A stretch of DNA of 64,000 nt from contig CAXVYR010000002.1 in the NCBI GenBank assembly GCA_963666975.2, forward strand, positions 64,001 to 128,000. The letters are read 5' to 3'. Both the position numbers and the translations under genes were made by a program. Position 1 is the stretch's first letter, and each line of letters opens with the position of its first letter. The notes under the pieces are model-generated. The model worked only from the letters and a program-made list of their open reading frames with translations. It searched no databases and was not told the origin of the DNA. Below are positions 5,279-54,537 of the stretch, in pieces. The DNA comes from Terriglobia bacterium (GTDB taxonomy: Bacteria; Acidobacteriota; Terriglobia; 2-12-FULL-54-10).

Positions 5279-5731
5279 CTATATGAGCTTAGAGACTGCC
5301 TCGCGAATCTTCAGCTCGATGATAATGTTCTCCTCCTCGGAGTTTTCCGGTGGAAGGGACCGGTGAGCAATCCCCCGGGGGATGACAAACATCTCGCCGG
5401 ATTGCAGGGTAATGTTGCCCAACTCCGTCTCCCAGTGGATGCTCCCCTTGTAGCAAAAGATCACCTCGTCGGCCTCCATATTGCGATGCCAGAAAACCAT
5501 CGGCTCCTTCGTCCTCTTGGAAAGGTCCAGCCGCACCCCTTCGGCTTGCAACAGCGGCAAGGGCGTCCCCTCGGCCTTGGCGTAGTTCGATGGCCGCAAG
5601 TTTGGATCGTTGACGTTGATCTTTTCCAGCTTGACCTGCTTGCTCTCGACGGAAATAACCTGCACGGGAGGAATTTCACGTTTCAAGATCAGTTCTTTTC
5701 CCTGCCATGTGAATTTCTCGGTGTAGGTCAT
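5279..5731 (-). CDS. cupin-domain protein (homogentisate-dioxygenase-like motif)
   Basis: FWHRNMEADEVIFCYKG...GEMFVIPRGIAHR cupin motifs 1 and 2. Confidence 0.75.
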   Translation of the reverse strand: MTYTEKFTWQGKELILKREIPPVQVISVESKQVKLEKINVNDPNLRPSNYAKAEGTPLPLLQAEGVRLDLSKRTKEPMVFWHRNMEADEVIFCYKGSIHWETELGNITLQSGEMFVIPRGIAHRSLPPENSEEENIIIELKIREAVSKLI

Positions 5732-5820
5732 GATTCTTTTCCTTTCTCAAAAACTCAATTTCCATCGCCAATATAAGAAGCTTGCTCCCGGAAGACCATC
5801 TAAACAGAGGCCGTCAGCCT

Positions 5821-6699
5821 CTAAGAACGAATGCAAGCCGCCGCGATCGCCCGCGAGACATAAACGCGGGCAAGGTGGGAGCGAAAATCGCTCGAGGCAT
5901 GCATATTCTCCATCACATCCACGCCCTGAACGATGGCGGACGCTGCCTCTTCAATAATTTTGGGTTCCAGTTTTTTTCCTTGCAGTCTCTTTTCTGTCTC
6001 TTCCGCCCGATAAGGCTTATCCGTCACTCCGGTAACCCCGATTGAAATTTCTTCGCATGTTTGATCGTCCCCTGCCTTCAGGCATAGGGCGATCCCGACC
6101 ATGGCAAAGTCCGATGGTCTCCGAGCAGCTTTCCGATAGATCGTTTTGTGGTCCGGCAAAACCGGCACGCGAATCTCGGACAGAATCTCATCCGGCGACA
6201 AAGCAGTTTCCATCATGCCGAGAAAGAAATCATCCGCTTGGATCCATCTTTCGCCTTTAGGACCGGCCACTTTTAATTCCGCTTTCAGAGCCAGGATCGC
6301 CGCCGGCATATCACCGGCCGGGTCGGCGTGGGCCAGACTGCCGCCGAGCGTCCCGCGGTTACGCACCTGGACATCGCCAACCACAGAGGCCGTTTGCGGC
6401 AAAAGAGGACATTTGCTTTGCAATAGTTCGGATTCCTTGATCTGGGCGTAGGTGGTAAGCGCGCCAATTGATATTGTGCCGGAGGGCCCGGCGCTTTCTT
6501 CGCGGATATAGTTCAGTTCCGCGATGCCGGCCAAATCCACAAGATAGTTTAGGCTGGCCAAGCGAAGCTTCAGCAGCGATATGAGGCTTTGCCCCCCCGC
6601 GAGAGGTTTCGCCTCCTCCTGGTAGCTGGAGAGAAGAGAAACAGCCTCGGAAAGAGATGCTGGAGCGAAGTATTCGAATTTGCTAGGTATCATAACCAC
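5821..6699 (-). CDS. xanthine dehydrogenase family FAD-binding (medium) subunit
   Basis: FEYFAP, AGGQSL, QVRNRGTLGGSLAHADPAGD motifs. Confidence 0.93.
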   Translation of the reverse strand: MVMIPSKFEYFAPASLSEAVSLLSSYQEEAKPLAGGQSLISLLKLRLASLNYLVDLAGIAELNYIREESAGPSGTISIGALTTYAQIKESELLQSKCPLLPQTASVVGDVQVRNRGTLGGSLAHADPAGDMPAAILALKAELKVAGPKGERWIQADDFFLGMMETALSPDEILSEIRVPVLPDHKTIYRKAARRPSDFAMVGIALCLKAGDDQTCEEISIGVTGVTDKPYRAEETEKRLQGKKLEPKIIEEAASAIVQGVDVMENMHASSDFRSHLARVYVSRAIAAACIRS

Positions 6700-6772
6700 T
6701 CCCGCCCGAAGAACCCCCCGCCCGAAGAACCCATAGTTGAAGAACCCATAGTTTCAGTGAAGCGACTGCTCA

Positions 6773-9178
6773 TCAAATCTCCTTGGTCTCCTTTACGGCC
6801 CTCACAACTTTTTGAGGTGTAATCGGCAGCGAGACAACTTTAACATGGAAGGGAGAAAGGGCGTCTTCCACCGCGTTGGCCACGGCGGCGACAGAACCAA
6901 TCGCCCCTCCTTCTCCCACAGCCTTGGATCCCAAAAGGGTGTAAGGGCAGGGAGATTCCATATGGGCGAGCTCAATTCTCGGCAGTCCGCCGGCTACCGG
7001 CTTCATGTAATCCATGAAGGAAGCCGATAAGGGCTGCCCGTTCTCGTCATAAACGAATTCTTCCAAAAGGGCCGCTCCGATTCCATGTACCGTCGAGCCG
7101 ATAGTCATGCCCTCCACGATCCCGGGATTGAGCTGCCTGCCGCAATCATGAACGATGACGTATTTGAGGAAGGTTACTTCTCCGGTCTCCATATCCACCT
7201 CCACCGCGACCACGTGGACGGAGTTGGAATGGGTAATTTGCACATTAAAGTCATCCCTGCTGGGACGTTTCGCCATGGAGTTTTTGTAATAGGCGATCTC
7301 CTTCAATCCCGGCTCCACGCCATCGGGAAGCAGTAGAATTTTTTTGTAGGCCAGAGAAGCAATCTCCTGGAATGAAACCGATTTCTGCTCGTCCTTGCTG
7401 GAACAGACCGCTCCGTTCTTCAACTGGAGTTCCCCTGTTTCCTCTCCCAACATGTGGGAAGCGATCCGAACCATTTTGTCTCTGACCTTTTTGGTGGCCA
7501 TAATGACGGCGCCGAGATCCACATCGTTGAACTTGTTGGAATAGGCCCCGGAATGGCCGAGAAACGGCGAGACCAAAGAATCGAGATGTGAATCGACCGA
7601 CACTCTTTCCGGATGGATGTCCAGCATATCCGCAATCACCTGGGTAATGGTGGTTGCATGGCCCTGGCCTTGGTCTACGGAACCCATCACCACATTCACG
7701 TTCCCGTCATAGTCGATGCTGACGATCGCGCCCTCGGCATTCCCCATGTATTCAGGGACACCCCTGGAGGTGTAGTAATACCCCAGGTTCGAGGTTCCCG
7801 GCTCTATTCCCGCGCTGATGCCTAAACCGATGTACTTCCCCTTTTTCCGCATTTCCATCTGCTGCTTTTTTAACTCGTTATAACCGCTCAGGCTCAATGC
7901 TTTCTGGAGACATTCCGGATAGTTTCCGCTTTCGTAGATTTCACCCGAAGGGGTGGTGTAAGGCATCTGCTTCGGCTGGACAAAGTTGCGGAAGCGAATC
8001 TCGACCGGGTCCAGCCCCAGTTTCTTGGCTGCTATGTCCATCATCCTTTCGAGAACAAAGATCATGGTGGGCTTGCCTACGCCCCGGTTCTGAACCGTGG
8101 GACCCTTCTGGGTCACGACGCTGATTAACTCGGCCCGGGTCGCTCGAATGTCGTAGCAGCCGACCATCGTGGCGAATTTGATCAGCCCATAGATGCCTGC
8201 CGTATGGACGAAGGAGCCGTCGTTTTCGATATCCTTGATAAAGAGGCCCAGAATCTTCCCGTCTTTTTTCATGGGCAGTTCAATCTCCACATCACAATCG
8301 GGCGCATGGCTGCCGCCCAGCAGGTGCTCTCTTCTGGTTTGCACCCACTTCACCGGCTTATCGACCTTTTTAGCCAGCAGACAAAGAATGACGATGTAGG
8401 GCCAGATGGCGAGTTTGATGCCGAAGCCTCCGCCGCTGTCGGGAACGATCAGCCGAAACCGGTTATTGGGAATGCCCAGCGTGTTGCAGACGTTCGTGGT
8501 GCTCCTGCCCGGCTGCTGGTCATTCGCCCACACGACGAAGGAGTCGTTTCCCTTCTCGTGTTTTGCGATCATGGCCCAATTTTCCAGCGGAGTTGAGCTG
8601 TACCTGTGAACCCGGAAGTGTTCCTTGACAACCAAGTCGGCCTCTTGGTAAGCGGCATCCATATTGCCGTGCTCCAGCTTGTCATGAAGCAGCACGTTGC
8701 TCCCCGCCTCTTCAAAGATCAAAGGGGAGTCATTCTTCAGGGCGTCCTCAATCTCCACTACCACTGGCAGCGGCTCATACTCCACATCGATCAGCTCCAG
8801 AGCGTCTTCGGCAATGTAGCGGTCCTCGGCGGCAACAGCCACAAGCGGCTCGCCTACGTAGCGGACCTTTTTATCGGCCATCACGTACTGAATGGCAGGC
8901 TGAGTGATGGCTCTCGCTACGATCGGTTTTGTCTGCTTCGCCACCTCCGGCCCGCTCACCACCGCGATGACCCCCTTGAGCGCCTCGGCCTTGCTGGTGT
9001 CGATCTTTGTGATGCGCGCGTGAGCGTAAACACTTCTCAGGAACGCGACATGCGCGCAATCCATGTCCAGATCATCCACATAGGCGCCCTCGCCTTTGAT
9101 TAAGCGGATATCCTCGTCTCTCCGGACGGGCTTGCCGACCCAGTTCCTCGTCACAAAGATCTCATCTAAATTCATCAT
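6773..9178 (-). CDS. xanthine dehydrogenase family molybdopterin-binding (large) subunit
   Basis: GGGFGIK, QGQGHATT, HDCG..LNP and KAVGEGG (catalytic Glu) motifs; ATGA overlap with the small-subunit gene. It lacks the CO-dehydrogenase AYxCSFR loop and has QNRGVG instead. Confidence 0.93.
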   Translation of the reverse strand: MMNLDEIFVTRNWVGKPVRRDEDIRLIKGEGAYVDDLDMDCAHVAFLRSVYAHARITKIDTSKAEALKGVIAVVSGPEVAKQTKPIVARAITQPAIQYVMADKKVRYVGEPLVAVAAEDRYIAEDALELIDVEYEPLPVVVEIEDALKNDSPLIFEEAGSNVLLHDKLEHGNMDAAYQEADLVVKEHFRVHRYSSTPLENWAMIAKHEKGNDSFVVWANDQQPGRSTTNVCNTLGIPNNRFRLIVPDSGGGFGIKLAIWPYIVILCLLAKKVDKPVKWVQTRREHLLGGSHAPDCDVEIELPMKKDGKILGLFIKDIENDGSFVHTAGIYGLIKFATMVGCYDIRATRAELISVVTQKGPTVQNRGVGKPTMIFVLERMMDIAAKKLGLDPVEIRFRNFVQPKQMPYTTPSGEIYESGNYPECLQKALSLSGYNELKKQQMEMRKKGKYIGLGISAGIEPGTSNLGYYYTSRGVPEYMGNAEGAIVSIDYDGNVNVVMGSVDQGQGHATTITQVIADMLDIHPERVSVDSHLDSLVSPFLGHSGAYSNKFNDVDLGAVIMATKKVRDKMVRIASHMLGEETGELQLKNGAVCSSKDEQKSVSFQEIASLAYKKILLLPDGVEPGLKEIAYYKNSMAKRPSRDDFNVQITHSNSVHVVAVEVDMETGEVTFLKYVIVHDCGRQLNPGIVEGMTIGSTVHGIGAALLEEFVYDENGQPLSASFMDYMKPVAGGLPRIELAHMESPCPYTLLGSKAVGEGGAIGSVAAVANAVEDALSPFHVKVVSLPITPQKVVRAVKETKEI

Positions 9179-9657
9179 AGGGCTTTCCCCGCGGACCCTT
9201 TTATCATTTCTGCCGCATATTTTATGGCGTCGACAATTTGCTGGTAGCCGGTGCACATGCACAGGTTCCCCTCAATCGCCTCGCGAATCTCGGCTTCGCT
9301 GGGCTCTGCGTTGGATTCGAGCAAGGAAACAGCGCTTAGAAGCATACCCGGAGTACAATAGCCGCACTGCACGGCGAATCGGTTCAGGAAGGCTTCCTGA
9401 ACGGGGTGTAGGCCATTCCCGGCAAGACCCTCTACGGTTGTGATCTCGGCTCGATTGGCTTGAACGGCCAGCATCATGCAGGATTTGACGGGCTTCCCAT
9501 TATAAAAAACCGTGCAAGCCCCGCAATTTCCCGTATCACAACCCACGTGCGTTCCCGTAAGCCTCGCTTTCTCGCGGATGTAATGGACGAGCAGAAGCCT
9601 GGCGTCCACTTCATGCTCGTAGTCCTTTCCGTTGATTCTCGCTTGGACCCTGTGCAT
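9175..9657 (-). CDS. xanthine dehydrogenase family 2Fe-2S (small) subunit
   Basis: GCDTGNCGACTV, QCGYCTPG and GNLCMCTGY cluster motifs. Confidence 0.95.
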   Translation of the reverse strand: MHRVQARINGKDYEHEVDARLLLVHYIREKARLTGTHVGCDTGNCGACTVFYNGKPVKSCMMLAVQANRAEITTVEGLAGNGLHPVQEAFLNRFAVQCGYCTPGMLLSAVSLLESNAEPSEAEIREAIEGNLCMCTGYQQIVDAIKYAAEMIKGSAGKAL

Positions 9658-9666
9658 GGCTCACCC

Positions 9667-11061
9667 CTAGATCACCGGCCACTTGGGCTTGACCTTTTCT
9701 TCCAGCTTGGTTTTTTTCAAAATGCCCGGCATGAGGCGCGCGATTTCATCGTAAATTTTCTCTTCATCCACCGTTTGCAGTTGGCGGCCCTCCATCAGGA
9801 TTTTCCCGTCGCAAATCACCGTGTCCACGCTGCCACCCGTGGCGCTGTACACCAGGTTCGAGACAGGATTGTACAGAGGCTGCCATTGCGGCGTGCGGGC
9901 GTTGAAGAGGGTTACGTCCGCTTTTTTGCCGGCCTCGAGCGAGCCGATCTCTTTCTCCCAAAGGGCGCAGCGCGCACCATTGATGGTCGCCATCTCAATC
10001 ACTCGCTCGGGCGGCATCACGCCCGTGTTCAGCCGGACTTCCTTATAGACCCCCGCTTCCAACGACATCTCTTGCACCAGGTCCACAATCCCCGAAGAAG
10101 CATGGTCCGAGCCTAAGCCCACCGCCAAGCCCATCTCCAGAAACTCCGGAATCTTTCCCATCAAAATACAGCCGTACGCGTTATGCAGGCTGGAGCTGGG
10201 CGAGGAGACGATCTTCACGTCGGACTCCACCATCCACTGCAACTCATGCGGACTCACCCATGCCGAATGCACCAGAAGCAGATTGGGTCCCAGCACGCCG
10301 AGACGCTTCAAACGCTCGATCTCCGGCACGCCGAATTGTGTTTTGGAAGCCTCCATCGTATCCCTGGAAAAGCAGGCATGCGTTTGCACCCCGGTCCCAT
10401 AACGGTCGGCAAGCTCTTTGAGCCGTGTAATCAACTGGTCCGTTGAGTTAGGAATGCCTCGGAATTGAAACCAAGCGCGAATCCGGCCGTTGTAAGCGCC
10501 GTTCCATTCCTGGACCACTTTTTCCGCCCGTTCCACGGCTTGATCGGTGGTTTCAATGAACCTCTCCGGCAGCCGTCCAAAGCTCGATTTCGTGATATCC
10601 AAAGAACTCTTGGCGACGATGCAACGGATTCCAACCTCTCCCACAGCCCGCGCCGTTTGGTGCGGATGGTAGGTGCCGGCGTCAATAAACGTGGTCACCC
10701 CGTTGCGCAGCAACTCCAAGACGCACAGCATGGCGCTCCAGTAGCTTTCCTCTTCGGTTAATAACCCCTCATACGGGTACATGCGCTCGAAGAGAAATTT
10801 CTGCGCGCTGACCTCATCCGCCAGACCCCGGCTGAGATGAAAGGCGCTGTGCATGTGGCCATCGATCAGGCCGGGCAATACCACCTTGCCGCGGGCATCG
10901 ATCACCCGCCGTGCCGATGCATGTTGCGGTTCCAGGTCCTGGGTTTTGCCGATTGCGACGATTTGGTCGTCCCGGATAGCAATGGCGCCGGAGGTGAAAA
11001 TGCGCCGCTCCGCATCCACCGTGATCATCCAATCCGCATCCCGGATGAATATGTCAGTCAT
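9667..11061 (-). CDS. amidohydrolase, Atz/Trz/MtaD-like deaminase or chlorohydrolase
   Basis: PGLIDGHMH, QTH, LVH and GLGSD metal ligands; IGSLEAGKKAD C-terminal motif. Confidence 0.88.
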   Translation of the reverse strand: MTDIFIRDADWMITVDAERRIFTSGAIAIRDDQIVAIGKTQDLEPQHASARRVIDARGKVVLPGLIDGHMHSAFHLSRGLADEVSAQKFLFERMYPYEGLLTEEESYWSAMLCVLELLRNGVTTFIDAGTYHPHQTARAVGEVGIRCIVAKSSLDITKSSFGRLPERFIETTDQAVERAEKVVQEWNGAYNGRIRAWFQFRGIPNSTDQLITRLKELADRYGTGVQTHACFSRDTMEASKTQFGVPEIERLKRLGVLGPNLLLVHSAWVSPHELQWMVESDVKIVSSPSSSLHNAYGCILMGKIPEFLEMGLAVGLGSDHASSGIVDLVQEMSLEAGVYKEVRLNTGVMPPERVIEMATINGARCALWEKEIGSLEAGKKADVTLFNARTPQWQPLYNPVSNLVYSATGGSVDTVICDGKILMEGRQLQTVDEEKIYDEIARLMPGILKKTKLEEKVKPKWPVI

Positions 11062-11394
11062 ATCGATTGAGTCCTTCCGGATCGGCCCCCCATCGGCTGG
11101 AAATTACCCATTCCACAGTCACCGTTTTTCGACATGGGGGGGTCAGGGAAGATTTGCAATATTATCCATACCGCTTCAAATTGCAAGCAAAATCAATGGA
11201 TGGCGCGCCCTGAGGCGGGGGTTCTTTCCCTTGAGCGGACATCTTTCTTCTGCTACCCTTCCCTCCGCCGTAATTTCCGGTTGAGCGGGCACCGGCATTG
11301 CATCCGGCATTGAACCCATCATTGAATCCATTGAGGAATCTATTGAGGAAGCCATCATAATTTTCTTTTCCAGGAGGTCACCCAGGAGGTCGCG

Positions 11395-12411
11395 ATGATC
11401 CTAGATATCTTTCCGCACATCTTTCCCCGTCCCTTTTACGAGGCCATGTTGAAGACCGAGCGTTCCGCCTACATGCAGAGACGCGTCAGCGCCATTCCCG
11501 TTCTGCTCGACCTGGAATTGCGGTTCCGCATCATGGATCAGTTTCCCGGCTACCAGCAGGTCCTTACGATGGCCTCGCCTCCGCTGGAGGCCGCAGGAAC
11601 CCCTGAAACCTCGCCCGAGCTGGCACGCATCGCCAATGACGGGTTGGCTGAGCTGACAGCCAAGCACCCTGACCGCTTCCCGACCTTTGCAGCCTCTCTT
11701 CCAATGAACAACATGGATGCCTGCCTGACGGAGGTGGACCGCGTCGTCCAGCAGCTCGGAGCACGGGGCGTGCAGATATTCAGCAACGTGAACGGACGCC
11801 CTCTGGATGACCCCGAGTTCCGTCCGCTGTTTGAGCGAATGGCCGCGCACGACCTGCCCATCTGGCTGCATCCGATACGCAGCGCCTCTTTCCCTGACTA
11901 TCAGTCGGAAAAAAAGTCCCGCCATGAAATGTGGTTTATCTTCGGATGGCCCTATGAAACCAGCATCGCGATGAGCCGCATAGTCCTTGCCGGCATGTTT
12001 GCTGAGTTTCCGAACCTGAAAGTGATTGCGCACCACACGGGCGGCATGGTGCCTTTCTTCGAAGGCCGCGTTGGACCGGGTCTGGACACTTTGGGTTCCC
12101 GCACGCCAAAAGATGAACAGGACCTGGTCAAAACCAATCTCAAAGGACGCCCGATCGATCACTTTCGGAAGTTTTACGCCGATACAGCGTCGTTCGGAGC
12201 GGTGGGACAGATCGTATGCGGCATGGGTTTCTTTGGGGTGGACCACATGCTCTTCGCCTCCGATATGCCCTTTGACCCGGAAAAAGGACCCGGCTTTATC
12301 CGCGAGACCATCCGCGCGATCGAGGCGATGGCGATTGCGCCCACAGACCGCGCGAAAATCTACGAGGAGAATGCCCGCCGCGTTCTGAAGCTGCCCAAGG
12401 CGAGTTCTTAA
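11395..12411 (+). CDS. amidohydrolase-2 family protein (ACMSD/aromatic acid decarboxylase-like)
   Basis: DIFPH, PIWLHP, GWPYET, IAHHTGG, FASDMPF motifs; AGGAGG RBS. Confidence 0.88.
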   Translation: MILDIFPHIFPRPFYEAMLKTERSAYMQRRVSAIPVLLDLELRFRIMDQFPGYQQVLTMASPPLEAAGTPETSPELARIANDGLAELTAKHPDRFPTFAASLPMNNMDACLTEVDRVVQQLGARGVQIFSNVNGRPLDDPEFRPLFERMAAHDLPIWLHPIRSASFPDYQSEKKSRHEMWFIFGWPYETSIAMSRIVLAGMFAEFPNLKVIAHHTGGMVPFFEGRVGPGLDTLGSRTPKDEQDLVKTNLKGRPIDHFRKFYADTASFGAVGQIVCGMGFFGVDHMLFASDMPFDPEKGPGFIRETIRAIEAMAIAPTDRAKIYEENARRVLKLPKASS

Positions 12412-12498
12412 GAAACTTTGGGAGCAATCCGAGAATAGCAGGCTCTTTTATTTTTGGAGTTGCCTGCTGCTTTTTCGATCCTGCTGGCTTTCCTCTAA

Positions 12499-12628
12499 CA
12501 GCTTGTTGAAAAAAGGATTTTGAACGACGCTACGAACACGTAAATCGTTGTAACCCATTGATTCTTCGTTCGACGGCATTACAGAAAAGTGGTTTTCGGG
12601 CAGGCGAAAATGATTTTTCAACAAGCTG
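12499..12628. mobile_element. 130-bp MITE with 15-bp perfect terminal inverted repeats and a CTAA target duplication (IS5/IS1182-like ends)
   Basis: CTAA-CAGCTTGTTGAAAAA ... TTTTTCAACAAGCTG-CTAA, with no transposase inside. Confidence 0.88.
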
Positions 12629-12679
12629 CTAAGCGCTTTCCCCAAGTGTTTCTTTCTATCCGTGTAGCAGGGGGCCGGT

Positions 12680-14080
12680 TTGGAGGCTGCGAGCAAAGAC
12701 GAAAGCGGGACCAGAGAACGCGGCAGTGGCCCCTCCACAAGCCGGAATCGGCTCGTTTCCCTGGGAATCATCCTGGCAGCGATGGCGATTGTATTGTTTG
12801 CCGTTCCCCGGCCGGAGGCCATCCAGCCGGAAGGTTGGCGTCTGCTGGCCATCTTTGTGGGAACGGTCATAGCCCTGATGCTGAACCCGTTTGCGGGAGG
12901 CGCAGCGGTGCTCCTGGCAATTACGGCAACCATCGCCACCGGAACGCTTTCGCCCGGCGAGGCCTTGTCGGGCTATTCGAACCCTACCGTTTGGCTGGTG
13001 CTGGCAGCGTTTTTCATCGCCCGTTCCCTGCTCAAGACGGGCCTGGCGCGCCGGATCGCCCTCAATTTTGTCCGCCGCATAGGACACAGTTCGCTGGGAT
13101 TGGGTTACTCCATCGTCTTTTCCAACGTAGTCCTGGCCGCCGTGATCCCCTCCAACACGGCCCGCAGCGGCGGAGTGCTTCTTCCCATCACCCGGAGCTT
13201 GGCTGAAATCTACCACTCTCACCCGGGAGCTAGCAGCAGCCTGCTGGGAACGTTTTTGATGCTGACCCTGTATCAGGGAGACGTAATCGCCTGCGCAATG
13301 TTTTTGACCGGGCAGGCCAGCAACCTGCTGGGGCGGAATTCGCGACGTAGACAGCCCATGTTCCCGTCGATTGGACGCGATGGCTGTGGGCTGCCCTGCT
13401 CCCCGGACTGGTCTCGCTTGCGCTGGTGCCCTGGGTGATCTTCCGGATCACCAAACCCGGCATCGCACGCACTCCGGCCGCCGCGGAATTTGCCCGCAAG
13501 GAGCTCCAGGATATGGGCCCCAGGAGCCTCCAGGAAAATATCGTGCTGGCCGTTTTTATCGCCGTCTGTGGCTTGTGGATTACGGCGCGCTTCCATTCCT
13601 TCACCACGACCACCGTCGCCCTGCTCGGTGTCTCAGCACTGCTGGTCAGCGGCATCCTCACCTGGCGCGATGCCTTGGAAGAACATGCTGCCTGGGATGT
13701 GTTCATTTGGTACGGCGGGCTGTTTGCGATGGGGGAGTGCATTGCACGAGTTCGGCGTCACTTCTGAATTTGCCCGTTTGGTTTCCAGCCTCTTTACAGG
13801 ATGGGGCTGGCTATGGGTTTTGTTCCTGATTGGATTAATTTTTTTCTACGCCCATTATGGTTTTGCCAGCATCACGGCTCACATGGTCTCCATGTACCCT
13901 CCTTTTTTAGGCGTGTTGCTGCTGCTCGGAGCGCCGCCCGGGGCAGCCGCCTTTCTCCTGCTCTTCTTCGCTAATCTCAACGCCGGCTTGACCCACTACG
14001 GGACCGTCCCCGCCCCGATCGTCTTTGGGACAGGCTACGTCTCGCAAGGACTCTGGTGGAAGGTAGGATTCCTCGTGTAG
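12680..14080 (+). pseudogene. DASS family anion (di/tricarboxylate) permease, frameshifted
   Basis: TGLARRIAL, PSNTARSGG, MFLTGQASN, WDVFIWYGG, HYGFASITAH and LTHYGT motifs are split over three frames (shifts near 13330 and 13735), with an early stop at 14080. Confidence 0.85.
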
Positions 14081-38718: not shown

Positions 38719-39054
38719 ATGGTAACGTTAACCCCAGGCGCAGTGAACAAGGTAAAAGAGATCATGAGCCAGCAAGAACCGCAGCCGGTGGGACTACGGC
38801 TTGGGATCGTCGGCGGGGGATGCTCGGGATTTTCCTATTCGATGACCTTTGAAACCAATGCCAACGGAGACGACTTCAGCATGGACAAGGTCTTTGAATT
38901 CGGCGGAGTGAAAGTCTTCGTGGACCAGGCCAGCTTGCTGTATCTCGACAATACCGAAGTTGACTTCGTCGATTCCATCGAAGGCGTTGGGTTTAAGTTT
39001 GGCAACCCGAACGTGAAAAGCACCTGCGGTTGCGGCAGCTCGTTCAGCGTCTAA
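38719..39054 (+). CDS. iscA: A-type Fe-S cluster carrier (HesB/IscA/ErpA)
   Basis: GGGCSGFSY and TCGCGSSF motifs; GGAGG RBS. Confidence 0.95.
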   Translation: MVTLTPGAVNKVKEIMSQQEPQPVGLRLGIVGGGCSGFSYSMTFETNANGDDFSMDKVFEFGGVKVFVDQASLLYLDNTEVDFVDSIEGVGFKFGNPNVKSTCGCGSSFSV

Positions 39055-39241: not shown

Positions 39242-40225
39242 ATGCCTTTCGATTCATATCAACGCGATATCAACTATCTCCGCATCTCTTTAACAGACCA
39301 TTGTAATCTGCGGTGCGTGTATTGCATGCCGGTCAATGGCCTGCAATTCCTTCCCCGAGAACATCTGCTGACCCCGGAGGAAATAGCCAGCGTAGTGCGC
39401 GCGGCTGTCTCGGTCGGGTTCCGCAAATTCCGGCTCACCGGAGGCGAGCCGACGCTGCGTCCGGACTTGCTGGACATTGTGCGGTTGATCGCCCAAACGG
39501 ACGGGGCGGGAGAGTTGTCGATGACCACAAACGGCATACTGCTCCCCGGCCTAGCCAAGCCTCTGGCGGAAGCAGGCCTGCGGCGCGTCAACATCCATCT
39601 GGACACGCTCCGGCCCGAGCGGCTCGGCCAGATCATGCGCTGGGGCCGTCTGGAAGACATCTGGGGAGGCATCGAAGCCGCCGAGCAGGCCGGGCTGCGG
39701 CCGATCAAGCTGAATGCCGTGATTGCACGGGGGCATAACGACATGGATGTAGCCGAACTGGCCGCTTTGACGATTGACCGGGACTGGCACTTCCGGTTCG
39801 TCGAAATGATGCCTTTTGGCGACGGTGAATGCGACCGCGTCGCAACAGATCAGTACGTCTCGAATGAAGAGACGCGCGCCCGGATCGAACAAAAACTGGG
39901 AACCCTGACGCCTCTGGAGGGTGACTCCTCCGATGAGTCGAGCAACCATAAACTGCCCGGCGCCCGCGGCGTGGTTGGTTTTATCAGCCCCGTCTCGGCG
40001 CCCTACTGCGGGAGCTGCAACCGCATGCGGTTGACGGCCGAGGGCAAGCTCCATCTCTGCCTGCTGAACGACGACGAGATGGACATCAAAAAACAGCTTC
40101 GCCAGGGCGGTCCCGAAGCCGTCCGCGAGGTGCTCTGCAAGGCGGTCGAGCTCAAGCCGATGGGACACCGGCTTCCGGAAGGAATCTTCACCCAGAACCG
40201 CAGGATGTACCAGATTGGAGGCTGA
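39242..40225 (+). CDS. moaA: GTP 3',8-cyclase
   Basis: YLRISLTDHCNLRCVYCMP, TGGEP, CGSCNRMRLT..G.LHLCL and a C-terminal IGG. Confidence 0.97.
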   Translation: MPFDSYQRDINYLRISLTDHCNLRCVYCMPVNGLQFLPREHLLTPEEIASVVRAAVSVGFRKFRLTGGEPTLRPDLLDIVRLIAQTDGAGELSMTTNGILLPGLAKPLAEAGLRRVNIHLDTLRPERLGQIMRWGRLEDIWGGIEAAEQAGLRPIKLNAVIARGHNDMDVAELAALTIDRDWHFRFVEMMPFGDGECDRVATDQYVSNEETRARIEQKLGTLTPLEGDSSDESSNHKLPGARGVVGFISPVSAPYCGSCNRMRLTAEGKLHLCLLNDDEMDIKKQLRQGGPEAVREVLCKAVELKPMGHRLPEGIFTQNRRMYQIGG

Positions 40226-40393
40226 GATGAGCCTCCAGCAAACCCTCCATCAAACCTTTTATCAAACGACGAGGCGGCACCCTCCCTTGCCCTCCCCGCC
40301 ATTTCATCTCGCCCGCATGGAGTGCGCGTTGCAGTTTTTCCCCGGCTCTCTTTGGAGACAAAATCTGGGGAGACAAAAACTGGAGACGAAAAG

Positions 40394-41173
40394 ATGACGC
40401 CGGTCGCCCTGACCATCGCGGGGTCGGACCCATCCGGCGGGGCGGGCATTCAGGCGGACTTGAAGACGTTCCATCAGTACGGTGTATACGGAACCAGCGT
40501 TCTGACTCTGCTGACGGTCCAGAACACATGCCGCGTCAGTTCCGTCGAGCACCTGAGGCCGGACTTTGTTCTGGCGCAACTGGATGCGGTGCTGGAAGAC
40601 ATGACTCCCCAAGCAGCCAAGACTGGAGCCCTCGGCACGCTGGAGATTATTGAGGCAATCGCGGAAAGAGCCGCTCAATTCACCTTTCCCCTGGTGGTGG
40701 ACCCGGTCATGATCAGCAAGCACGGAGCGTCTTTGATCCACGAAGACGCGCGGACCACCCTGGCCCGGAAACTGCTCCCGCACGCAACGCTGGTCACCCC
40801 GAATGTCCACGAGGCGATGGCGCTTTCGGGTCTCGAGTTTCACGGCATGGCTTCGCTGCAAGAGGCGGCCAAAGCGATTGCCGGATTAGGTCCACGGGCA
40901 GTCCTGGTGAAAGGCGGCCATCTGGTGGAGGAAGCCGCCGATGTTCTCTACACGGAGAACCGTTTCCAAACCTTTTCCGCAAAGCGCATCGCGACCTCGC
41001 ATACGCACGGCACCGGCTGCACCTATTCGGCTGCGATCACCGCAGAGCTGGCCAAAGGAGCGGAGCTGATCCGCGCGGTGGAGGCTGCCAAGCGATACAT
41101 CACCCGGGCCATCGAAACTAATCCCGCTCTCGGGCACGGCTACGGGCCGGTAAACCATATGGCGCCGATCTGA
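40394..41173 (+). CDS. thiD: hydroxymethylpyrimidine/phosphomethylpyrimidine kinase
   Basis: LTIAGSDPSGGAGIQADLKT, VVDPVM, VKGGH, THGTGCT motifs. Confidence 0.96.
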   Translation: MTPVALTIAGSDPSGGAGIQADLKTFHQYGVYGTSVLTLLTVQNTCRVSSVEHLRPDFVLAQLDAVLEDMTPQAAKTGALGTLEIIEAIAERAAQFTFPLVVDPVMISKHGASLIHEDARTTLARKLLPHATLVTPNVHEAMALSGLEFHGMASLQEAAKAIAGLGPRAVLVKGGHLVEEAADVLYTENRFQTFSAKRIATSHTHGTGCTYSAAITAELAKGAELIRAVEAAKRYITRAIETNPALGHGYGPVNHMAPI

Positions 41174-41207: not shown

Positions 41208-42617
41208 ATGAACGTCGTCCTCCTATCAACCTATGAACTGGGCCGTCAACCGTTCGGGCTGGCCTCGCCGGCGGCATGGCTTCGGGAGGCTGGCGTTACC
41301 GTCACCTGTTTGGATCTCTCCCGCTCCGCCTTCGAGGAAGAACTGATCCGCTCGGCGGACTTGGTGGGTTTCTACGTTCCCATGCACACGGCCACCCGCA
41401 TCGCTACGCTTCTGGCCGGACGAGTAAGCAAGTTGAACCCTCGGGCGCATATGTGTTTCTTCGGTCTTTATGCTCCCGTCAACGAGAGCTTCCTGCGAAA
41501 GCTGGGGGCCGAGACGATCCTCGGCGGCGAGTTTGAAGCAGGACTGCTGTCGCTCGTCGAAAGGTTGCAGACAACGAATCACCGGCCTGCCGGGCTCCCG
41601 CAGCACGAGCCGGTGATTTCAACCGCCCGGCAAAGGTTCCGCGTCCCGGACCGCAGGGGGCTCCCCGCTCTGCGAAACTATGCAAAGCTCGATTGGGGCA
41701 ACGGCGAACAGCGCTTGGTTGGGTACACGGAAGCGAGCCGAGGCTGCAAGCACCTTTGCCGCCACTGCCCGGTTGTGCCGGTCTATCAGGGCCGTTTCCG
41801 GGTTGTCCAGCGAGAAGTGGTGCTGGAGGACATCCGGCGGCAGGTTGCGGCGGGAGCCTCGCACATCACCTTCGGCGACCCGGACTTCTTCAACGGCGTC
41901 GGACATTCCATTGCGCTCGTGGAGGAATTCCACCGCGAGCATCCACGCCTCACCTATGACGCCACGATCAAGATCGAGCATCTGCTCCAGCATGCGCGGC
42001 ATCTGAGAACGCTCCGCGACACCGGCTGCCTGTTTGTAACGAGCGCAGTCGAAGCTGTCGATGACCGAGTGCTGCACCTTCTGGACAAAGGCCACACGCG
42101 GGCAGATTTTGTGCAAGTGGTAAAGCTGGTTCGCAATGCGGGACTGCATCTGTCACCCACCTTTGTAACCTTTACCCCGTGGACATCGCTGGAAGGTTAT
42201 CTGGATATGCTTTCGCTTATGGCCGAACTGGACATGGCGGAGAGTATCTCCCCCATCCAGTTGGCCATTCGGTTGCTGATCCCCGCCGGCTCGAAGCTCC
42301 TGGAACTGGCTGAGGTTCGCGAACAGGTTGGAGAATTCGACGAGGGGAAACTCAGTTATCCGTGGATGCATTGCGATGCGCGAGTGGAACAGTTGTTTCA
42401 GGACGTCCGCGAGACCGTGGGACGGACGGAAGCTCTCGGCCAAACCCGCAGCGAAATCTTTCCCCAAGTTTGGGAGTTGGCCGAGCGCGCGGCTGGAAAG
42501 AAGGGCGGAGCCACTTTTAAGATGTCCCCGCTCCCCGCACGGGCGACGCTTCCCTACATCAACGAGCCGTGGTTCTGCTGAGCGGAGCCTACCGCAGAGC
42601 AGTTTGCTCTGGTTTAG
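41208..42617 (+). CDS. B12-binding-like radical SAM selenoprotein with CUAEP tail (UGA at 42579-42581 read as Sec; 469 aa)
   Basis: YELGRQPFG N-terminus and SRGCKHLCRHCP (CxxxCxxC). The C-terminus reads NEPWFC-UGA-AEPTAEQFALV-UAG, with a SECIS-like hairpin directly downstream of the UGA. Confidence 0.9.
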
Positions 42618-42619
42618 GC
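42587..42619 (+). promoter_or_regulatory. bacterial SECIS-like stem-loop
   Basis: GCCTA..CAGAGCA-GTT-TGCTCTG..TAGGC: a 7-bp upper stem with a G-first apical loop about 20 nt after the UGA. Confidence 0.75.
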
Positions 42620-42660
42620 AATGGCCGGAAATCAGAAGACGGGAGGCCGACCGAACTACA

Positions 42661-42717: not shown

Positions 42718-44067
42718 ATGATGAATCGATCCCAGCAAAATTCGTTAGTCAAACTCGCTCAGAAAACAGTGCAGAAAAACCGTCTTTTACTGCTGTTCAC
42801 CACCACGGGCTATCAGGCCGCCGCTTTCAAGGAGGCTGCCGATAAGCTCGGCATCGCCGCCGTGGCGGGCAGCGACCGCTGCCACGTATTGGAAGACCCC
42901 TGGCGGGATGGCGCTATCCCTCTGCGATTTGAAGAGCCCGCCGCCTCGGCAAAAATGGTCGTCGAGTACGCCGCCAAGCATCTGCTCGACGCCGTCATTC
43001 CAATCGGCGACAAACCCACCCTTACCGCTGCAATGGCCTGCCAAGCGCTCGGGCTGTTGCACAACTCTCCCGCTGCCGTTCGGGCCTGCCGTGACAAGTA
43101 TCAGTTCCGCCAGCTTCTCCAGGCCGCAGGGGTGGATGGCCCCGCCTTCTGCAGGCTTCCCGCGCACAGCGATTCTCCTCCTATTCCACCACCCGGTGTT
43201 GGATTTCCCTGCGTCCTGAAACCGTTGTCGCTCTCGGCCAGCCGGGGAGTCATCCGGGCGGACAACACAGAGCAATTCACCGGCGCATTCAACAGAATCC
43301 AGGCGCTGCTCAAAACGCCGGACATCCGAAGAACCAAAGATGAGGCAATCGAGTGGATACTAGCCGAAAACTACCTGGAAGGGCCGGAAGTGGCTTTGGA
43401 GGGAATTCTCGACCGGGGCGCTTTGCAGGTCCTGGCTCTGTTTGACAAGCCGGACCCGCTGGAAGGTCCCTACTTTGAGGAGACGATCTACACGACTCCT
43501 TCCCGTTTACCCGAAGCCGTCCAGAACCAAATAGTAAAGTGCGCGGAGCAAGCCATCGCGGCGGTGGGACTGTCCCACGGGCCGATCCATGCCGAGCTGC
43601 GGCTGACGCCACAAGGCCCCAGGGTTCTGGAAGTGGCGGCCCGCTCGATTGGCGGTCTCTGCTCGCGGTCGCTGCGGTTTGATGCGGGCATGTCGCTCGA
43701 AGAGCTGATTATCCGCCATGCCCTGAACTGGCCCATCGGCTCGGTGCGCCGCGAGGATGCCGCCTCCGGGGTGATGATGATTCCGGTTCCCGCAGCAGGA
43801 GTGCTGCTTGAGGTAAGGGGTCAAGAGAAGGCGTTCGAAACTCCAGGCATCGAGGAGATCCGCATTACGGCCAAAATACAGCAGACTCTGGTTCCCTGGC
43901 CGGAGGGCTCCAGCTATCTGGGATTTATTTTCGCGCGCGCGGCGTCATCTTCGTCTGCCACGGCATCTTCCCCAGCGTCTGCCCCAGCGGAGGTTGAGGC
44001 CGCCTTGAGAACCGCCCACAGCAAGTTGCAATTTGTGATTTCCCCTGCCCTGCCCGTGGTGCGCTAG
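42718..44067 (+). CDS. ATP-grasp ligase (L-amino acid ligase-like)
   Basis: CRDKY, GFPCVLKPLSLSASRGVIRAD, ENYLEGPEVALEG, GPIHAELR..LEVAARSIGG motifs. Confidence 0.9.
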   Translation: MMNRSQQNSLVKLAQKTVQKNRLLLLFTTTGYQAAAFKEAADKLGIAAVAGSDRCHVLEDPWRDGAIPLRFEEPAASAKMVVEYAAKHLLDAVIPIGDKPTLTAAMACQALGLLHNSPAAVRACRDKYQFRQLLQAAGVDGPAFCRLPAHSDSPPIPPPGVGFPCVLKPLSLSASRGVIRADNTEQFTGAFNRIQALLKTPDIRRTKDEAIEWILAENYLEGPEVALEGILDRGALQVLALFDKPDPLEGPYFEETIYTTPSRLPEAVQNQIVKCAEQAIAAVGLSHGPIHAELRLTPQGPRVLEVAARSIGGLCSRSLRFDAGMSLEELIIRHALNWPIGSVRREDAASGVMMIPVPAAGVLLEVRGQEKAFETPGIEEIRITAKIQQTLVPWPEGSSYLGFIFARAASSSSATASSPASAPAEVEAALRTAHSKLQFVISPALPVVR

Positions 44068-44095: not shown

Positions 44096-44377
44096 TTACT
44101 GCTTGGTCTGCTCAGGGACATAACCCGGAGGAAGCGCAGCGCCTTCGCCGAAAAAGTAATCCTCCATCTGCTGACGAACGACCTTTTGCGCCTCGCGCTC
44201 CACCAGGTTGAGCCGGTATTCGTTGACGATCATCTTCAGGTGCTCCAGCCACAATTTCCAGGCGTCTGCCGAGACATTCTCGTAGATGCGCTTGCCGAGT
44301 TCGTTGTTGAAGGGAGGCTCCTCCATCCCTGGCATCTCGCGTTGAAACTTGACGCATTTCACCATTTTTGGTGCCAT
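44096..44377 (-). CDS. yggX: Fe(II)-trafficking / oxidative damage protection protein (YggX family)
   Basis: MVKCVK...ELGKRIYENVS.DAW..W...MIVNEYRLN motif. Confidence 0.92.
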   Translation of the reverse strand: MAPKMVKCVKFQREMPGMEEPPFNNELGKRIYENVSADAWKLWLEHLKMIVNEYRLNLVEREAQKVVRQQMEDYFFGEGAALPPGYVPEQTKQ

Positions 44378-44555
44378 TTTTCCTCCCCTTGTGGCGGCTC
44401 TTGCTGCCACCGAAAGCGATCGAATGAACAGGATACACTGATCCCGCGAGCAATCAGGCTACGAGCATTCTCCGCGCCTTGTCAACGTTTAAGTATTTTT
44501 CGGTAATGGGAAGGAAGTTGAAAACCTCCTCCCCACTGCGATAACATATCTATAC

Positions 44556-50429: not shown

Positions 50430-52319
50430 TTAGAACGTCTGCTCCAAATCGATGCCCGCTTTTTCCAGGGTGACGCCCATGGCCCGGTCCATCTGCACCG
50501 CGGCTTTGGCATAGTTGGCGCGAGCCTCCACCGCAGCAAGCTGCGCGGCCAGCACGTCCCGCTGCACCTGAATTACATTGTAGGGAATGGAAACTCCCGC
50601 TTGCAGCTTTTTTTCTTCGGCATCCAGGGTTTGCTCCATGCGGTCCACGGCCTTGCGCGCCGCCGCCACTTGCGCTTTCGTCTGCATCAAGCCAATGACG
50701 GCGTTGCGCACTTCCAGGCCGATCTGGTTGCGGGTGCGTTGCAGGGCCGTCTCGGCCTGCCGCTGTTCGAGGCGGGCCCGCAGATCATCGGCTTGGGCGC
50801 TCCGATTCAACAAAGGAAAGCTCAGCGAGAAACCAACCGCGTACTCGGGAAAATCAATGCGGCCCACCTGATGGAGCACCGAGCCCAACCCTCCGGATGA
50901 TCCCGCAGTGGCGAAGCGGCCAAAGATATTCAGCGTGGGTTTCAGGCGGTTCCGGGTGAATTGGACCGCTGTTTCCTGGTTCAGAATGTTTCCTTCCGCT
51001 TGCTGGATTTCCGGCCGGTTGCGCATGGCGGCGCTCAACGCCTCCTCCAGTCCGGGAATGTTGGCGTCTTGCGGCTCCGGCAACGAGTCCGTTATTTCAA
51101 TCCGCGCACCCCGCAAAACCGGAACGGTCTGTTTGCTGAAGACGTTTTTCAGCGCCACTTCTCTCATCTGCAAATCTGTCTCGGCTACGATCCGGTCGCG
51201 CTCCCTGGCCGCCACCTCGGCCTCCGCCGTCAGGACATCCAGCGGAGCGAGCGTGCCGATCTCGGCCCTCTTCCTATTGTCCTCATACAACCGCTCGGCG
51301 ACGGTCAATGCCTGTTCGGCCGCGCGGAGCCTGTCGCGGGAAGCAACCAGATCCCAGTACAGGCTTTGCGCCTGCGCCACAGTGTCGATCACCTGCTGCC
51401 GGAACCATTCCCGGGCAATCCGCCGCCCGTTTTGCGCCACATTCAAAAAGCGGCGCGTGACGCCGAAACCGAATCCGTTCATCAACTGCTGGTTGACGGA
51501 AAGAGAAAAGCCGGAGACAAAAGACGGGTTGAACAACAGAAATTGCTGGGTAGAACTCTGCCGCTGCGTATTGAAGCTGACGCTAAAGCTGGTTCCGGTT
51601 GTGAAGCCCTGGGCGTAAAAGGCCTGCAGGGCCGTCGTGTTGGCCACAACGGTCGGAACGCCGGCAACCCGCAGAGTGTTCAGCGGGCTGGTGGTACGGT
51701 CCACGCTGAAGTTCAGGCCGGCTACCGGATCAAAGTTGCTGCGCGAGCCTATAAACACCTGCCGGGCACGGCCGCTGATGGCGCTTCCACCGCCGCCTCC
51801 TCCTCTACCGCCTCCTCCGCCGCCTCCCAGTCCGGCTCCGATAGCTCCCGCAAACAGCCCGCTGGGGACACGGGCTCCGGCCACGCCGCGAGGCGACTGA
51901 CCCGCCTTGGCGCGCAAGATATCAGTTTCCGCAAAAGAGTTGTTGTAGCGAGCGACAGCGAGATCGAGATTGTTCTCCACCACGGCGTCCAACAACTGGG
52001 CGAGCGACAGCTCCAATTTTCCGTCACGGATCCTCTCGATGACACTTGCTCCAGTTCTTAGATTCGGAGATGGAATCCGCTGCGGCACGTAAGGCTTGTA
52101 GAATTTCGGGAACCACTCCTGGTTCCTGCTGTAGTCTTGCTTTACCAGATGGGGCGCCAGATCGGGAGGCACCAGATCGGGAGGTAGAGGTTGAGCCGCC
52201 GCCGGCATGCCTGCCAGGAAAAGCGCCAGCACGAAGAACACGATCCCGGAACGAGCAACAGTGTGAGTCCGGTCTGGGCGAGCCTGGTCTGGTTTCCAAT
52301 GTCGGGACGGGGTAACCAT
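50430..52319 (-). CDS. TolC family outer-membrane protein
   Basis: [37 protein letters not shown] motifs; Gly-rich insert. Confidence 0.9.
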
Positions 52320-52328
52320 TGCGGGTTC

Positions 52329-54230
52329 CTATTCGCCTCCCGGGGTAAATCCCCGAGCGCTGAATGGCGGGGTCGGCATGCGGGAGACGGTGCCGCTCAA
52401 TGCGTCGGAAAGCCGGATACCATTCCGGTCGAGCGTGGTGCCCATGGACCGGTCCATTTCCACCAGGGCTTTCGCATATCCAGCCACGGCGTTCACCTCC
52501 GCCAACTCGGCGGCAATCAGGTCGCGCTCCCGCAAGATCACCTGGTAGGAGGTCGTCACTCCCGCCTGCAATTTTTTCTGCTCGGCTTCCAGGGTCTGGC
52601 GGCCCAGGCGAACCACCTGGTGCGCCGCTTCCACCTGCGCCTTGCCTTGGATCAGCCCGATGATGGCCTGCTGCACCTCCAGGGAAACCTGGTTCCGGGA
52701 ACGCTGCAAACTGACCTCCAACTGGCTCCGCTCAAGTTGGGACCGGAGGCTGTCGGCCTGAGCGGCACGATTCTTGATCGGAACCGTCAGACTAAATCCT
52801 CCTGCGTATTCCGGAAACTCGCCGCGAATGGTTTGTCCCAGAGAACCGGGAGCGCCCGCCTTCACCCCTTCGGCGTTTCCCCGCAGACCGGCGCCGGAAT
52901 AGAGGCCAAACACGCTGGCTCTCGGCAGCAGACCGTTTGTCGTGAACTGCGTGCTGATGGCCTGGTTTTGGAGGTTTCCTTCCGCCTGCCGCAAATCGGG
53001 CCGGTTTGCCAAGGCGTTGGTCAGGGCATTTTGCAACTCCGGGATGTCGGCATCCCGCGGCTCCGGCATCTGATGGGTGATCACAATGCGCGCCGCATCC
53101 AGTTCCGGCTCCACCTTCTTGCTCAACAGATTCTTTAGCCGCGCCTCCTGCTGCTGGAGGTTCGTCCGGGCCACGATCAAATCGCGCTCCCGGGCGGCAA
53201 CCTCCGCCTCTGCGGCCACCACGTCCAGGGGCGCCAGCGTCCCGATCTCCGCCTGGATTTTGTTGTCCTCAAAAAGTCTCTGCGCCACGGTCAAGGACTG
53301 TTCGGCTACACGGACGTTTTCCTGGTGCGCCGCCATATCCCAGTACATGTTTTCCAGCTCGACGACTGTGCTGACGACTTGCTGGCGGAACACCTCTTCG
53401 GAAACCCGGCGGTTGTTTCGCGCGACCATCAGGAACCGCTCATTCGGCAGCCGTCCGAATCCGCTGAGCAAGGGCTGATTAAACCCCACCGCAAGGCGGG
53501 TAATCACGGCCGGATTGAAAAGCTGATTCAGCTGCGTAGTGCTTTGCCGCAGTCCGCTCAGAGTCACAAAGTAACTGGTGCCGGTAGGGAACAGTTGGGT
53601 ATAGCTGCCCGAAAACGCAGTGGCGTAGGTGGTGACATTGGGGATGCCGGACACCACCGTGGTGTTCAGAGGAGAAGTGACACGGTCCCAGCTAAAATTA
53701 AAGCTAACCGCAGGATCAAAGCTGCCCGTTGGACCGATCTGGACAGCGCCGCCTCCTCCGGTGATGCCGCCCGCTGAGCCCAATCCGCCCCCGCCGGATG
53801 CCTCGCTGATACCCGCTCCCAATGCGCCTATCGAGAGGCCGCCCGGAACGGATGCGCCCGGAACACCACGAGCCGCCTGGCCCGACCGGGCCCGCAGGAT
53901 ATCCGCCTGGGCCATCGGCACGATATAACGAGCCACCGCAATGTCCATGTTGTTTTCCAGCGCCAGAGCCAGAGCATCGGCCAGAGACAGCTCCAAATTC
54001 CCGTCGCGGATGAGGTCCGCAAGCCGCCGGGAATTCTCCAGGATCATGGGACTGATCCTCTGCTGCTGATAGGGCCGGTAGAAAGAAGGAAACCAGCTTG
54101 GCCCTGCCGTGTAATCCCTCTGAAATCCTTGCGGGTCCTGCGGAGCTTGACCGAAGAGCCGAGTCTCCGGCGCAAGCCCGTACAGGCAAAAAACAACGAG
54201 CAAGGCTAACCCGTAAGGCTGTACTTTCAT
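52329..54230 (-). CDS. TolC family outer-membrane protein (paralog of the adjacent gene)
   Basis: [40 protein letters not shown] motifs. Start may be 54257. Confidence 0.9.
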   Translation of the reverse strand: MKVQPYGLALLVVFCLYGLAPETRLFGQAPQDPQGFQRDYTAGPSWFPSFYRPYQQQRISPMILENSRRLADLIRDGNLELSLADALALALENNMDIAVARYIVPMAQADILRARSGQAARGVPGASVPGGLSIGALGAGISEASGGGGLGSAGGITGGGGAVQIGPTGSFDPAVSFNFSWDRVTSPLNTTVVSGIPNVTTYATAFSGSYTQLFPTGTSYFVTLSGLRQSTTQLNQLFNPAVITRLAVGFNQPLLSGFGRLPNERFLMVARNNRRVSEEVFRQQVVSTVVELENMYWDMAAHQENVRVAEQSLTVAQRLFEDNKIQAEIGTLAPLDVVAAEAEVAARERDLIVARTNLQQQEARLKNLLSKKVEPELDAARIVITHQMPEPRDADIPELQNALTNALANRPDLRQAEGNLQNQAISTQFTTNGLLPRASVFGLYSGAGLRGNAEGVKAGAPGSLGQTIRGEFPEYAGGFSLTVPIKNRAAQADSLRSQLERSQLEVSLQRSRNQVSLEVQQAIIGLIQGKAQVEAAHQVVRLGRQTLEAEQKKLQAGVTTSYQVILRERDLIAAELAEVNAVAGYAKALVEMDRSMGTTLDRNGIRLSDALSGTVSRMPTPPFSARGFTPGGE

Positions 54231-54537
54231 CTGGAACCTCCTGAAGTAGTTCTGCATGAAACGCTCATGAAATACTGATGATAAGAACCCGAATCAGGTT
54301 GCCGAAGTTTCGCCAGGAACAGCACTGATGAGCAGAACTTTGGTTTGCGTGCGGGTTTGTGTGCGCCTGCGGTCTTCAACTTTTGCAGGGTGACCCGATT
54401 CGGGGAAATCCTTGACCAATTACGCTCGGATTTGAAGGAAATCAAAACCAAATATAAATGTTAGCACCAAATGTTCGCACCAAGGGCGGGAATTTGGTAG
54501 TGGATCAGCTTCCGTTGGGCGCAGCGTCACACGATTT

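Follow-up and report, generated by a model that had tools for sequence, protein, structure and literature searches.

The 64,000-nucleotide stretch of contig CAXVYR010000002.1 analysed here (Terriglobia bacterium assembly GCA_963666975.2, positions 64,001 to 128,000 of the forward strand; hereafter the window) carries a radical S-adenosylmethionine (SAM) enzyme gene with an in-frame UGA near its 3' end. Comparison with relatives indicates that this UGA, at 42579-42581, is almost certainly decoded as selenocysteine (Sec). The gene is a true selenoprotein gene of the curated NCBIfam family NF040546, a membership settled as far as sequence allows. It is very probably the first gene of a conserved three-gene set, a functional module that also includes an ATP-grasp protein of the L-amino-acid-ligase type and the iron-trafficking protein YggX. 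The chemistry of the enzyme, its substrate and the role of the ligase are what we infer. The best explanation as a whole combines the Sec enzyme and the three-gene set with a chemistry like that of the arsenic enzyme ArsL, and we regard it as an even call.

41208..42619, forward strand: gene of the radical SAM selenoprotein, 469 residues with Sec at position 458 and the terminal TAG at 42617-42619, translated with TGA read as Sec (U).
41745..41768, forward strand: CxxxCxxC motif for the radical SAM [4Fe-4S] cluster (C180, C184 and C187), seen in the translation and in 75 of 75 aligned sequences.
42576..42581, forward strand: Cys457-Sec458 pair, TGC followed by the in-frame UGA, assigned from the sequence and from the codons of relatives.
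42587..42619, forward strand: hairpin resembling a Sec insertion sequence (SECIS), taken from the minimum-energy fold of 42579-42625 and beginning 8 nt downstream of the UGA.

Under translation table 11, the open reading frame (ORF) runs from 41208 to 42581 and encodes 457 amino acids, ending in PYINEPWFC before the TGA. The same frame continues past the TGA for 11 codons (AEPTAEQFALV) to the TAG, giving the 469-residue read-through protein. An earlier note, made by a model from the sequence alone, had described both this continuation and the CxxxCxxC motif (C180-x3-C184-x2-C187), and the sequence agrees. That note had also named a CUAEP/CCAEP-tail radical SAM family related to ArsL, and profile searches bore out both points. 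The read-through protein matched NF040546 ('CUAEP/CCAEP-tail radical SAM (seleno)protein') with 620 bits against a cut-off of 500. The match was end to end, with residues 3-467 covering profile positions 1-467 of 468, tail included. A six-frame search of the genome with the same model gave 613 bits with 1 TGA inside the match, and the enzyme is encoded in a single copy in this 4.23-Mb genome. The second-best family was ArsL (NF040542), which at 287.2 bits stayed under its cut-off of 450; all others scored 54 bits or less. Pfam Radical_SAM was recognized at residues 177-315 (45.9 bits).

The window tail, PWFC-U-AEPT, carries the Cys-(Sec/Cys)-Ala-Glu-Pro motif of NF040546. Members of this family have the same CxxxCxxC and the same C-terminal EPW(Y/F)-C-U-AEP, with Sec or Cys at the same site as in the window, but most have Tyr before Cys-Sec, at the place of Phe in the window protein; the window tail is of the short form. 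A homologue on the megaplasmid of Thermomicrobium roseum, with 42% identity, already bears the family name in RefSeq. Its gene (NC_011961.1; L130, 4509-8855) lies between a divergent pyridoxal-phosphate-dependent aminotransferase gene and a convergent major facilitator superfamily transporter gene, and no ligase gene adjoins it. The Sec reading of the family is already known. As a hidden selenoprotein the gene is ordinary: a current NCBI annotation run would read it through, because the name of the family model already says '(seleno)protein'.

We scanned species-representative genomes (one genome per species), confirmed 569 relatives and kept the best 80 for locus counts. At the aligned Sec site, 70 of the 80 relatives carry TGA, seven TGC and three TGT. 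The motif at the site reads [CU][CU]AEP in 71 of the 80 and CUSEP in seven; a contig end truncates one locus, and another is masked. Among the 70 TGA loci, AEP or SEP and an open frame past the TGA are retained in all 68 that are readable, the other two being the one cut by a contig end and the one masked. (In L066, about 100 N bases stand right after the TGA, following position 5402, and both tail and hairpin are unreadable.) Sec and Cys forms alike conserve the tail AEPT-x-[ED]-Q-[LVF]-A, which occurs in a short version of about 11 residues, as in the window, and a long one of about 25. The Cys before the Sec site is invariant across the 75 aligned sequences. The family tree was built without the tail columns from 79 rows, which leave out the locus with the masked stretch and the one whose tail is cut. 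On this tree the Sec/Cys label needs six changes, and well-supported branches force at least four swaps. The codons found in relatives agree with the earlier note, which had read the in-frame UGA as Sec within a Cys-Sec tail; it had also named loss of the AEP extension in homologues as the mark of a mere truncation, which these loci do not bear out.

The genome also contains the Sec machinery, which the same note had put forward as a check on its reading. selA (563 bits), selB (372 bits) and selD (349 bits) all exceed their curated cut-offs. tRNA-Sec scored 72.8 bits, again over the cut-off, and ARAGORN calls it tRNA-SeC with anticodon tca. The selD gene (G000:C4:1360322-1361257, locus L010) itself encodes a selenoprotein, with an in-frame TGA in the context KAAG-U-ASKLSP. 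Behind its UGA stands a 7-bp stem whose GGU loop occupies nt 24-26, the geometry seen in the window hairpin.

The hairpin behind the enzyme's UGA had been drawn in the earlier note as having the position and shape of a bacterial SECIS, and the drawn fold proved to be the minimum-energy fold of 42579-42625. Its lower stem (GCCUA/UAGGC, 5 bp) pairs 42587-91 with 42615-19 and is followed by a 3x3 internal loop. The upper stem (CAGAGCA/UGCUCUG, 7 bp) pairs 42595-42601 with 42605-11, and the apical loop GUU (42602-42604) occupies nt 24-26 counted from the U of the UGA. Bacterial SECIS elements are stem-loops that lie shortly after the UGA and have a G early in the apical loop, within numerical limits that bSECISearch applies. 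The window hairpin is a stem-loop shortly after its UGA, with G first in the apical loop. Considered as one sequence, three observations count against it. The fold is only modestly better than chance (-19.2 kcal/mol, z -2.2, with 4 of 200 shuffles folding as well); in a 71-nt context a different minimum-energy fold keeps only five upper-stem pairs; and a search of the whole window against Rfam at gathering thresholds returned no match and no curated SECIS family.

Comparison across the family showed that the hairpin is conserved in Sec forms. At least six of the seven pairs form in 63 of 69 Sec forms, in none of the ten Cys forms and in 8.6% of shuffled 3' arms. All 69 Sec forms pair at least five of the seven, and Cys forms two to five. 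The top of the hairpin lies at nt 23-27 from the U of the UGA throughout the family. Pairing falls into two registers, one of 38 sequences with a 5-nt loop and one of 31 with a 4-nt loop, and pairs were counted per register. Within the 38-sequence register, which holds the window, 91% of cells pair in place, compared with 80.9% in shuffles (0 of 500 reach 91%) and 45-60% when the partner is slid. Compensatory change was counted in this register only; 23 cells are altered on both sides, compared with 4.4 in shuffles (0 of 500), and such change is seen at four of the seven pairs. Related sequences inflate the shuffle tests; better controls are provided by sliding the partner and by the Cys forms. 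RNAalifold run on all 69 Sec forms pooled recovered only three pairs, the family being split over the two registers. The peptide encoded by Cys forms is almost identical, and the pairing is therefore not explained by codon constraint alone.

The two other genes of the set lie directly downstream.

42718..44067, forward strand: ATP-grasp protein of the L-amino-acid-ligase type, 449 amino acids, 99 nt after the selenoprotein gene, with Pfam domains ATP-grasp_4, LAL_C2 and ATPgrasp_N.
44096..44410, reverse strand: YggX-type Fe(2+)-trafficking / oxidative damage protection protein, 104 amino acids, convergent with the ligase gene (NF003817, 123 bits, cut-off 74).

The ligase shares its three domains with its nearest solved relatives by sequence, the L-amino acid ligase BL00235 (3vot, E 1.4e-36) and BacD (about 2e-17), and it reached no cut-off in NCBIfam. 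BL00235 reportedly prefers methionine as the first residue. A longer ligase ORF beginning at 42328 was rejected; it overlaps the selenoprotein gene and has no homologue support. The YggX gene is the sole PF04362 match in the genome. A ligase homologue adjoins the enzyme in 51 of the 80 loci, while 18 others, with at least 3 kb on each side, are without it. A YggX homologue is found in 41 of the 80, placed behind the ligase gene in some and immediately ahead of the enzyme gene in others.

We also counted enzyme and ligase in 301 genomes of the window's phylum, accepting ligases at E up to 1e-40. The enzyme is present in 51 (48 over the cut-off and three fragments) and the ligase in 60. Both occur in 49 genomes, the enzyme only in two, the ligase only in 11 and neither in 239; kin genomes are not independent, and no probability is attached to these counts. 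The two genes are non-adjacent in 24 of the 49 genomes that hold both. Five genomes of other groups have an enzyme locus without the ligase, and in four of them a strong ligase is encoded at another site (E 1e-139 to 7e-170); in a Nonomuraea genome, whose enzyme is a Cys form, the ligase matches were weak only. An NfuA-like gene adjoins the unlinked ligase in eight of 20 loci. Genes for aconitase (24 loci), glucose-6-phosphate dehydrogenase and glucokinase recur near the enzyme in Acidobacteriota, and we read them as gene order common to related Acidobacteriota and not as members of the module.

Upstream of the selenoprotein gene, at a distance of 2 kb, lies a gene for an IscA/ErpA-type iron-sulfur (Fe-S) carrier (38719-39054, forward strand), and MoaA (39242-40225) and ThiD (40322-41173) genes stand between the two. 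MoaA, ThiD, XdhC, NUDIX and MsrP were rejected as partners; they are local to the window, and only the MoaA ORF falls in a common cluster, with 6 of 81 sources.

What the enzyme does may be approached through ArsL, the arsinothricin biosynthesis enzyme. The window protein is 33% identical over 407 residues to a Bacillus cereus protein of the ArsL family with an RCCLKC tail, and it shares with ArsL the domain order and a Cys-rich, flexible C-terminal tail. According to two reports, ArsL generates a 3-amino-3-carboxypropyl (ACP) radical from SAM and makes a C-As bond, the three Cys of its RCCLKC tail bind As(III), and its iron and sulfur content is unchanged when the tail is removed (10.1101/2024.02.01.577332; 10.64898/2026.04.29.721666). 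The role in arsenic handling that the earlier note had given for the ArsL tail is thus in print. Enzymes of PF04055 nearly all make a 5'-deoxyadenosyl radical, and ArsL is an outlier among them, as stated in the later report (10.64898/2026.04.29.721666).

The Cys-Sec pair offers a second comparison. Haft and Gwadz (2022) treat the CUAEP/CCAEP family as uncharacterised, its structure and function being 'not well known', and list the Cys-Sec dipeptide in a small number of selenoprotein families, mostly ones linked to heavy metals (10.1101/2022.07.06.499078). The same survey lists HgcA, SaoL, SaoB and some MerT as selenoproteins of organometallic systems with this motif, and reads Cys-Sec as a heavy-metal site (10.1101/2022.07.06.499078). 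The window enzyme has the vicinal Cys-Sec in common with HgcA, SaoL, SaoB and MerT, although the folds are unrelated; in three genomes, genes for CpaM and an HgcAB-like fusion lie behind the enzyme gene (described below). Our literature searches found no paper on the function of the CUAEP/CCAEP family, and the survey of Haft and Gwadz was the sole paper they returned that mentions the family by name or treats the Cys-Sec dipeptide.

By analogy with ArsL, and in line with the earlier note, we tentatively propose alkylation of a soft atom bound to the tail, for which the gene context offers indirect support. The hairpin would aid Sec decoding and so give a flexible tail, PWF-Cys-Sec-AEPTAEQFALV. 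The [4Fe-4S] cluster would cleave SAM to the ACP radical, which would then be joined to a soft atom (As, another metalloid or a chalcogen) on Cys-Sec, producing an unusual alpha-amino acid. The ligase would couple this amino acid to a second one, and YggX and other Fe-S helpers would keep the oxygen-sensitive cluster working. The kinship with ArsL, the position of the tail, the ligase partner and a variant locus of methylation type all fit aminocarboxypropyl transfer to a tail-bound soft atom. A fuller version of the proposal, which we find unlikely in its entirety, would have the Cys-Sec arm hold As, Sb, Se, Te or Hg, to which the aminocarboxypropyl group of SAM is joined; the product would be made into a dipeptide by the ligase in most lineages and methylated by the corrinoid HgcAB-like protein and CpaM in a minority (G034, L043 and L070).

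The structure model is compatible with a mobile tail. AlphaFold2 predicted the enzyme with a mean predicted local distance difference test score (pLDDT) of 90.7 and a predicted template modelling score of 0.90, and residues 430-469 had pLDDT of 56-73, as expected of a mobile arm. The best fold matches were AprD4, OxsB, MgmA and TsrM, radical SAM enzymes of Rossmann-plus-barrel type, with template modelling (TM) scores of 0.58-0.65 normalised to the model and Foldseek E values of 1e-14 to 1e-16; the folds are alike, but sequence identity is only 14-18%. A sequence search of solved structures with the enzyme gave no match. The fold resembles both cobalamin-binding members and AprD4, which reportedly works without cobalamin. 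Pfam B12-binding scored 19.9 bits, below its cut-off of 32.1, and reached 36.3 bits in a relative in G034.

Several observations weigh against an ArsL-like chemistry. The window enzyme fails the ArsL model, and its C-U-AEP tail lacks the third Cys of the RCCLKC (CCxxC) tail. No ars gene (arsM, arsQ or an ars island) was found among the 19 ORFs at 32448-54257, the rest of the genome not having been searched. The partner of the enzyme is an amino-acid ligase, whereas that of ArsL is ArsM, and NF040546, unlike ArsL, occurs across soil and sediment phyla, with housekeeping genes as neighbours. Such neighbours fit a core function more readily than a pathway for an antibiotic or for arsenic. Among the 60 genomes with the ligase, 11 lack the enzyme, and four of these 11 are 97-100% complete (one ligase-only genome, G024, is flagged unpublished). 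Outside the cluster motif, the Cys and Sec residues conserved in the 75 aligned sequences are C83 (99%), C274 (100%), C457 and the Sec/Cys site; the Bacillus cereus RCCLKC-tail protein has Thr and Val at the positions of C83 and C274. These two family-specific residues could be signs of an auxiliary cluster. Together with the lack of ars genes nearby, the housekeeping neighbours and the Fe-S helpers, they leave room for an auxiliary-cluster or a canonical mechanism.

The RCCLKC-tail gene of Bacillus cereus belongs to an arsenic island on plasmid pAH820_272 (L131, NC_011777.1, 444-11215) that also holds genes for ArsR, ACR3, ArsC, a MIP channel and a GNAT acetyltransferase. An annotated ATP-grasp gene 3.3 kb upstream of the RCCLKC-tail gene was considered as the same pairing and rejected, its product having 28% identity to the window's ligase over 222 residues. 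An ATP-grasp gene beside an RCCLKC-tail gene is suggestive, but this is not the pairing of enzyme and ligase seen in the window.

An auxiliary-cluster mechanism would make the enzyme a true selenoprotein that inserts sulfur or selenium, or carries out another reaction of the kind known from MiaB, RimO, LipA and BioB. C83, C274, C457 and U458 would ligate or feed a second cluster, which YggX, NfuA and IscA-type helpers would rebuild after turnover. We consider this improbable, although it would give a role to the four conserved Cys/Sec residues outside CxxxCxxC, two of them absent from the RCCLKC-tail protein. It would also agree with the presence of MiaB and RimO among the fold matches (TM about 0.55). 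The recurrence of Fe-S helpers points the same way: YggX in 41 of 80 loci, the NfuA-like gene at eight of the 20 unlinked ligases, and the IscA/ErpA-type gene at 38719-39054. NfuA regenerates the sacrificed cluster of LipA. Such helpers would, however, suit any oxygen-exposed radical SAM enzyme, and the methylthiotransferases rank behind AprD4, OxsB, MgmA and TsrM as fold matches. In ArsL, the nearest family, loss of the tail left iron and sulfur unchanged (10.1101/2024.02.01.577332; 10.64898/2026.04.29.721666).

Alternatively, the selenoprotein may act through a 5'-deoxyadenosyl radical on a free amino acid or small peptide, with Cys-Sec as a redox pair or hydrogen-atom donor. That radical is the product of nearly all PF04055 enzymes (10.64898/2026.04.29.721666), and identity to the ArsL family is only 33%. 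The ligase, together with the aminotransferase and amino-acid dehydrogenase genes of G034, points to general amino-acid metabolism. We nevertheless judge this unlikely: ArsL is by far the closest named family (287 bits, against 54 for the next), and the tail stands where ArsL has its As-binding tail, which argues for a like role. The Cys-Sec survey also links families with this dipeptide mostly to heavy metals (10.1101/2022.07.06.499078).

That the TGA is a plain stop, with the protein ending at Cys457 and the downstream frame and hairpin a relic or terminator-like, is highly improbable: the complete 457-residue table-11 ORF, the weak significance of the hairpin alone and the lack of an Rfam match would allow it, but the comparative data contradict it, since the open frame with AEP or SEP persists in 68 of 68 readable TGA loci, Cys codons replace TGA in ten loci with the same tail and the hairpin shows covariation and disappears precisely in the forms with Cys in place of Sec, and further against it stand the full Sec machinery of the genome and a family profile that spans the tail.

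The ArsL-like proposal draws in part on a variant locus without the ligase. In L043 (about 9600-12300), L070 (about 9500-12250) and L132 (G034:C46:130500-144500, 3977-13319), the enzyme gene is followed on the same strand by genes for DUF169, the corrinoid-protein-associated methyltransferase CpaM (228-245 bits, cut-off 180) and an HgcAB-like fusion (322-329 bits, cut-off 285). In G034, two ORFs of no known type lie between DUF169 and CpaM, and genes for a class I/II aminotransferase and an amino-acid dehydrogenase follow the HgcAB-like fusion. No strong ligase was found in these three genomes (best E 1.5e-21, 1.5e-41 and none). A strong ligase does exist away from the enzyme locus in the genomes of L074 and L088, the result for L088 resting on G308, which is flagged unpublished. 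By analogy with ArsL followed by ArsM, the variant locus fits an alpha-amino-acid product with a heteroatom that would then be methylated. The HgcAB-like fusion was rejected as a general partner, only two of the ten genomes over its cut-off holding the enzyme.

The interest of the family lies in its ties to an amino-acid ligase and iron-sulfur helpers, and in the rare radical chemistry by which its sole characterised relative forms a carbon-arsenic bond. It is a widespread family: the species-representative scan confirmed 569 relatives, and 48 of the 301 phylum genomes score over the cut-off. If the ArsL-like proposal is right, this would be the first selenium-assisted radical SAM enzyme to form a carbon-heteroatom bond. 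The ACP-radical chemistry of ArsL would also have a second use in nature, serving a widespread core function and not an antibiotic pathway, and many soil and sediment bacteria would make an undescribed organo-metalloid or organo-chalcogen amino acid.

Further downstream in the window, the reverse strand carries two adjacent genes for TolC-like outer membrane efflux proteins of 629 and 642 amino acids (50430-54257), which are unrelated to the selenoprotein.

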